A DNA stretch of 64,000 nucleotides from Escherichia coli (GTDB lineage Bacteria; Pseudomonadota; Gammaproteobacteria; Enterobacterales; Enterobacteriaceae): NCBI RefSeq assembly GCF_003334815.1, contig NZ_QOWO01000010.1; one strand, written 5' to 3'. Of the stretch, positions 34,411-34,598 are shown piece by piece. The translations under genes and the position numbers were made by a program. Within the stretch, counting starts at the first letter, position 1. Each line of letters starts with the position of its first letter. A model generated the notes under the pieces. That model was not told the DNA's origin. It was given only the letters and a program-made list of their open reading frames with translations, and ran no database searches.

Positions 34411-34487
34411 GCGTTCATAGCTCAGTTGGTTAGAGCACCACCTTGACATGGTGGGGGTCGTTGGTTCGAGTCCAATTGAACGCACCA
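34411..34487 (+). tRNA. valV: tRNA-Val (anticodon GAC)
   Basis: 77-nt cloverleaf gcgttcatagctcagttggttagagcacc...ttcgagtcc...cgcacca with GAC anticodon and encoded CCA. Confidence 0.93.
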
Positions 34488-34491
34488 TCCT

Positions 34492-34568
34492 GCGTCCGTA
34501 GCTCAGTTGGTTAGAGCACCACCTTGACATGGTGGGGGTCGGTGGTTCGAGTCCACTCGGACGCACCA
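34492..34568 (+). tRNA. valW: tRNA-Val (anticodon GAC)
   Basis: second 77-nt copy 4 nt downstream, differing mainly in the acceptor and T stems. Confidence 0.93.
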
Positions 34569-34598
34569 GATTTTCTTAATCTGGTCTTCTCCTTTTTC
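34566..34598 (+). terminator. terminator-like hairpin downstream of valW
   Basis: ccagatt / aatctgg hairpin followed by T-rich tract. Confidence 0.5.

Follow-up and report, generated by a model that had tools for sequence, protein, structure and literature searches.

In several tRNA operons of Escherichia coli the individual tRNAs are parted by RNase P and not by RNase E. This has been described for leuQ-leuP-leuV, secG-leuU, valU-valX-valY-lysV and lysT, and it holds likewise for valV-valW. The spacers concerned are short and not A/U-rich, with UCCU in valV-valW and CUUC, CC and CUC in other valine operons. The operons differ in how their transcripts end and are trimmed. Those of valU and lysT carry recognised Rho-independent terminators that are removed by RNase P itself, with processing running 3' to 5', whereas valV-valW has been described as Rho-terminated, with exonucleolytic removal of the trailer and possibly co-transcriptional cleavage. 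In leuU and metT, Rho-independent terminators abut the 3' end of the tRNA and inhibit RNase P until they have been removed. The RNAs of valV and valW have been sequenced and their genes mapped for decades, and their processing pathway is a published model system for RNase P function.

Identity and transcription of the locus

The window, by which we mean the whole 64-kb stretch of DNA analysed in the present study, contains exactly two tRNA genes according to ARAGORN, both of them tRNA-Val(gac) on the plus strand. These are valV (b1665; 34411-34487, +) and valW (b1666; 34492-34568, +), each 77 nt long with an encoded CCA end, and separated by the 4-nt spacer TCCT (UCCU in the RNA; 34488-34491, +) that is also reported in the literature (PMC2190699, PMC4176162). 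The Rfam tRNA model (RF00005) recognises the two genes with 70.1 and 69.6 bits, respectively, against a gathering score of 29 (E ~3e-13). The anticodon gac is placed by ARAGORN at position 35 of each 77-nt gene, which is equivalent to standard positions 34-36 once the additional D-loop residue 20a is allowed for. An earlier note on this DNA had described two tandem 77-nt tRNA-Val(GAC) genes lying 4 nt apart, and both are called by ARAGORN as well as by RF00005.

Both calls match the annotation of E. coli K-12 MG1655 exactly, and 801 of 801 bases are equal to that genome (NC_000913.3 1746124-1746924). Mapping the MG1655 annotation onto the window gives the same gene order, ydhQ - valV - valW - ydhR, in which ydhR (34676-34981, +) lies 3' of valW and outside the tRNA operon. 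Sequence, spacing, the ydhQ and ydhR flanks and the promoter are all identical to those of K-12 valV/valW, and the locus is the same one: the valV-valW operon of E. coli K-12, encoding the Val2A/Val2B species. Nothing counts against this identification, and published northern blots and charging assays show that the two sequences do yield mature tRNAs that can be charged. The valV-valW locus was found in every one of the 5426 complete E. coli genomes examined. Elsewhere in the window, small-RNA families of Rfam match at 25429-25819 (-; STnc550), 52684-52744 (-; rydB) and 58348-58455 (+; RprA), which is consistent with the K-12 chromosomal neighbourhood.

A consensus scan places a sigma-70 promoter at 34356-34384 (+), composed of the -35 hexamer TTGCCA (34356-34361), a 17-nt spacer and the -10 hexamer TAATAT (34379-34384), with the G+C-rich discriminator TCGTCCCC directly 3' of the -10. 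The scan agrees with the promoter hexamers given in PMC2190699, which match at 5/6 positions at -35 and 4/6 at -10. Primer extension has located two transcription starts, both at a C, which precede the 5' end of mature valV by 18 and 19 nt (PMC2190699); C residues near the start are indexed at 34390-34392 in the window, the mapping of the start being accurate to +/-1 nt. The 5' leader of the primary transcript accordingly occupies 34391-34410 (+), with starts at ~34391-34393, and the sigma-70 promoter would initiate a transcript with a leader of ~18-19 nt.

Co-transcription of the two genes has been demonstrated by northern blots and primer extension (Mohanty & Kushner 2007, PMC2190699), so the dicistronic precursor proposed in the earlier note is a published fact. 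The sequence is compatible with a dicistron, there being one promoter and a 4-nt spacer too short to hold a promoter or a terminator. The dicistronic species VW1 and VW2 build up only when RNase P is inactive, with a half-life of >32 min as against <30 s, and no dependence of processing on RNase E was observed (PMC2190699). The UCCU spacer, at 4 nt and without an A/U-rich site, offers a reason why RNase E is not needed. RNase P alone parts valV from valW, the sequence 3' of valW is removed by PNPase and RNase II, and ydhR is reported, in part as data not shown, not to be co-transcribed with the operon (PMC2190699); later papers from the same laboratory, including PMC4176162, confirm the pathway. 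Applied to the window, RNase P would generate both tRNA 5' ends, a step that by itself would free valV from valW. The cut on the 3' side of UCCU would create the 5' end of valW and leave a 4-nt trailer on pre-valV. The trailer after valW would be removed by PNPase and RNase II, with final trimming by RNase T, RNase PH and others.

Taken together, we put the probability at roughly 97% that the locus is the K-12 valV-valW operon, a dicistron separated by RNase P and trimmed by exonucleases, the termination of which is most likely Rho-dependent. The genes and their dicistronic precursor were already known, and there is nothing new in either.

One further Rfam family matches the opposite strand. 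The HPnc0260 model (RF02194) aligns over its full length at 34530-34692 (-) with 112.1 bits, well over its gathering score of 59, and overlaps the 3' end of valW, the trailer and the ydhR start codon. This could be read as an antisense RNA of the family, and E. albertii, Proteus, Enterobacter, Citrobacter and Kosakonia give weaker matches at the corresponding place. The family was, however, defined in Helicobacter pylori, where it is a NikR-repressed RNA divergent from ureA, and the context in the window is unrelated to ureA. In its last 40 positions the model simply corresponds to the T arm and acceptor end of a tRNA in reverse complement, and valV alone already gives 36.6 bits; what remains of the model is A-rich and fits the complement of the pyrimidine-rich trailer. 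Scores drop towards the threshold outside Escherichia, and Serratia gives no match. A consensus scan of the minus strand from 33900 to 35100 returned no sigma-70-like site. Given a match apparently driven by tRNA antisense and A-rich sequence, and the lack of a promoter-like site on that strand, RF02194 was rejected as an explanation of the locus, and we regard such an antisense RNA as very improbable.

Two isodecoders with compensated stems and their distribution

Alignment of the two copies shows that valV and valW agree at 71 of 77 positions, the exceptions being linear positions 5, 7, 51, 65, 67 and 69. These six differences constitute three two-sided pair swaps, which from valV to valW are U5-A68 to C-G, A7-U66 to G-C and U50-A64 to G-C. 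The acceptor stem reads GCGUUCA/UGAACGC in valV and GCGUCCG/CGGACGC in valW, the T stem GUUGG/CCAAU and GGUGG/CCACU, and in both tRNAs each of the 21 stem pairs is of a standard type. No difference falls in the D arm, the anticodon arm or the variable loop. The alignment, which the earlier note had itself suggested, bears out both its compensatory acceptor- and T-stem differences and its shared anticodon arm, and its description of the two genes is accurate in every detail.

A review (PMC9976931) lists A35, C36, A73, G45, G3-C70 and U4-A69 as identity elements for ValRS, all of which are present in valV and valW and are the same in both. The minor element G20, defined on Val1, is U in the two tRNAs. 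The swapped pairs belong to the lower acceptor stem and the T stem and spare the identity elements, and both tRNAs should therefore accept valine and read the same codons; we infer that they are equivalent in decoding. Val2A and Val2B can be resolved on 2-D gels, are acp3U47-modified and read GUC and GUU, and both tRNAs are aminoacylated in vivo, with 38-47% for Val2 (PMC4176162). In the sources consulted the two species are listed only as a pair, and we found no gene-by-gene assignment of Val2A and Val2B.

The distribution of the pair was surveyed in a species sample of 120 loci with tandem Val(GAC) genes, taken from contigs of one genome per species. An exact valV followed by an exact valW occurs in 46/120 of these loci, in genera including Escherichia, Citrobacter, Enterobacter, Lelliottia, Kosakonia and Cedecea, and further in Mangrovibacter, Shimwellia, Siccibacter and Superficieibacter. 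The spacer measures 3-17 nt in these arrays and is most often 4 nt long. The widespread form is the valW type, which is found in Serratia, Rahnella, Xenorhabdus, Photorhabdus, Erwinia, Pantoea and Tatumella, and its partner varies by lineage or family, being for example GCGTTCT/GGAGG or GCGCTCT/GATGG (acceptor stem/T stem) in Erwiniaceae. Across 23 distinct gene sequences there is a single non-pair in 3288 acceptor- and T-stem cells. Judged by these comparisons, heterogeneous tandem Val(GAC) arrays are an old and stable trait of Enterobacterales. The valV/valW pair is frozen base-for-base over many genera of Enterobacteriaceae, which shows that two isodecoders have been maintained over the long term and have not been homogenised by gene conversion.

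As both copies have the same anticodon they could seem redundant, and one of them might be taken for a decaying pseudo-tRNA, with the differences attributable to drift. This is already refuted by the pairwise compensation of all six differences, by the base-for-base retention of both sequences in the 46 species loci and many genera, by Rfam tRNA scores of ~70 bits for either copy, by the biochemical resolution of Val2A and Val2B as distinct modified species, and by the rarity of variants, which are exceptions among the E. coli genomes inspected.

Within E. coli, variant genomes were picked by querying synthetic W-W, V-V and V-W junctions against the 5426 genomes; the resulting identity bands served for this choice only and are not clean counts, as repeats were joined as one place. 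In rare genomes there are three tRNA-Val(GAC) genes, arranged in SCU-116 as valV-valW-valW with TCCT between them (L002 1502-1740), and in CFE299 as valV-valW, a 104-nt segment made up of trailer sequence and a 3' fragment of valV, and a second valW (L004 151-489). In Q65 a single chimera combines the 5' part of valV with the 3' part of valW (L006 402-478), which would give an A7.C66 mismatch and reflects either a deletion by recombination or a collapse of the two genes in the assembly. An IS3-family element stands in place of valV in CEC96047, where valW alone remains (L005 1-486), and 14EC047 has U5 in valW, giving a U5.G68 wobble (L003 483-559).

Outside E. coli, the pair is followed 2-4 kb downstream by a third gene with exactly the sequence of valV in Cedecea neteri, Enterobacter sp. 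Cy-643 and Cedecea davisae (L065, L071 and L110). A 1592-bp contig labelled as a Lachnospiraceae MAG (Firmicutes; L034) carries a tandem Val(GAC) array of enterobacterial type and is probably a case of binning contamination.

The hairpin after valW and the end of the transcript

A hairpin with the arms ACCAGATT and AATCTGGT and the loop TTCTT follows valW at 34565-34585 (+). In the RNA it pairs ACCAGAUU with AAUCUGGU around a UUCUU loop, and the 5' arm opens with valW's own ACCA. The stem is perfect and AU-rich, with 8 pairs of which 3 are G-C, and its folding energy of -10.3 kcal/mol compares with -2.7 +/- 1.7 for shuffled sequences (z = -4.4). Substitution of the 3' arm AATCTGGT by AATCTCCA would break the stem.

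We surveyed the window together with 119 further tandem Val(GAC) loci from the one-genome-per-species contigs, giving 120 trailers, for a stem anchored by ACCA...TGGT with at least 8 contiguous pairs after the last gene. The anchored hairpin is present in 24/120 trailers, in each case matched by no more than 1 in 500 shuffles, and these trailers belong to Escherichia, Citrobacter, Enterobacter, Lelliottia, Kluyvera, Pseudescherichia and Silvania (orthologous loci include L007, L008, L011, L025, L027, L043, L087, L108 and L115). It is absent from the trailers surveyed in Kosakonia, Mangrovibacter, Cedecea and Superficieibacter. The inner stem covaries, with GC, UA, AU and UG at position 5, AU and UA at position 6, UA and CG at position 8, and AU and UA at position 9. 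Bona fide hairpins contain 8 G.U wobbles versus 1 A.C, a count that is informative only for the 16 hairpins ending in TGGT, and this excess of G.U over A.C argues that the structure is selected in the RNA of the plus strand. Strand assignment with both types of wobble allowed was discarded, as it produced spurious stems in unrelated trailers.

Conservation, covariation and the G.U bias together point to the hairpin being a selected feature of the tRNA transcript. The sequence after valW has been described as "unstructured" and without predicted secondary structure (PMC2190699), a statement contradicted by a hairpin that both folds and is conserved.

Beyond the hairpin lies a pyrimidine-rich and G-poor trailer (34586-34640, +), a candidate region for Rho loading and termination. 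Its composition is 27% C, 7% G and 45% T (overall range 27-29% C and 7-10% G), and 40-nt windows from 34570 to 34600 contain 9-13 C versus 3-4 G. Such a C-rich, G-poor trailer is as expected of a Rho loading site. Rho-dependent termination of valV-valW is asserted in PMC2190699, where it was inferred from the absence of structure together with data not shown; in the literature beyond that paper we found no bicyclomycin or rho-mutant test of termination after valW, nor any further evidence on valW and ydhR.

A structured 3' end raises the question of whether the hairpin and the U-rich stretch behind it form a genuine, if weak, Rho-independent terminator of the dicistron. Its perfect 8-bp stem is followed by CUUCUCCUUUUU and was flagged by the terminator scan, its folding is considerably more stable than that of shuffles, it is kept with covariation in several genera, and in Citrobacter and Pseudescherichia it is succeeded by GCUUUUC or GCUUUUU. 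On the other hand, only 3/8 pairs are G-C, the U-tract of the E. coli tail CUUCUCCUUUUU is broken by a C, and in Enterobacter, Lelliottia and Silvania the hairpin is kept but precedes GCAAAUCC, a sequence devoid of a U-tract. The scan found 2 sites in the region versus 1.1 expected by chance, and at this level the scan alone proves nothing.

The mapped transcripts also speak against termination at the hairpin. The terminator-containing precursor VWT exceeds VW1 by ~35 nt despite lacking part of the 5' leader, which sets its 3' end ~35-47 nt or more past the CCA, rather than the ~24-28 nt expected of an intrinsic terminator at this position; the authors of PMC2190699 likewise hold termination to be Rho-dependent. 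We consequently judge intrinsic termination at 34565-34585 unlikely. Rho-dependent termination is the better-supported alternative, and the transcript most likely ends by this route in the pyrimidine-rich trailer before ydhR. The terminator-like hairpin of the earlier note is thus real and conserved as a structure; the role implied by its name does not sit well with the AU-rich stem, the interrupted U-tract and the end of VWT.

The closest parallels for the hairpin are leuU and metT. As in those genes, a hairpin lies right at the CCA end of valW, and VWT persists despite active RNase P. Unlike the leuU and metT terminators, the valW hairpin has an AU-rich stem and no clean U-tract, its trailer is removed by PNPase and RNase II instead of RNase E, and the primary literature does not treat it as a terminator. 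From the persistence of VWT with RNase P active, its discoverers inferred that this precursor is resistant to the enzyme (PMC2190699), and masking of the CCA by the hairpin would explain that resistance.

We infer that the hairpin serves in pausing or in processing and does not act as a classical intrinsic terminator. By masking the CCA it would make the precursor a poor substrate for RNase P until PNPase and RNase II remove the trailer, and it might in addition pause RNA polymerase, letting Rho terminate transcription before ydhR. The more specific proposal, that it is a selected and overlooked processing checkpoint masking the CCA, or else a hybrid terminator, and not an intrinsic terminator of the classical kind, is put forward tentatively, with the odds somewhat against it. 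The sole and small addition made here to the published account of valV-valW concerns this hairpin, namely a phylogenetically supported sequestration of the CCA end in a trailer that has been called unstructured.
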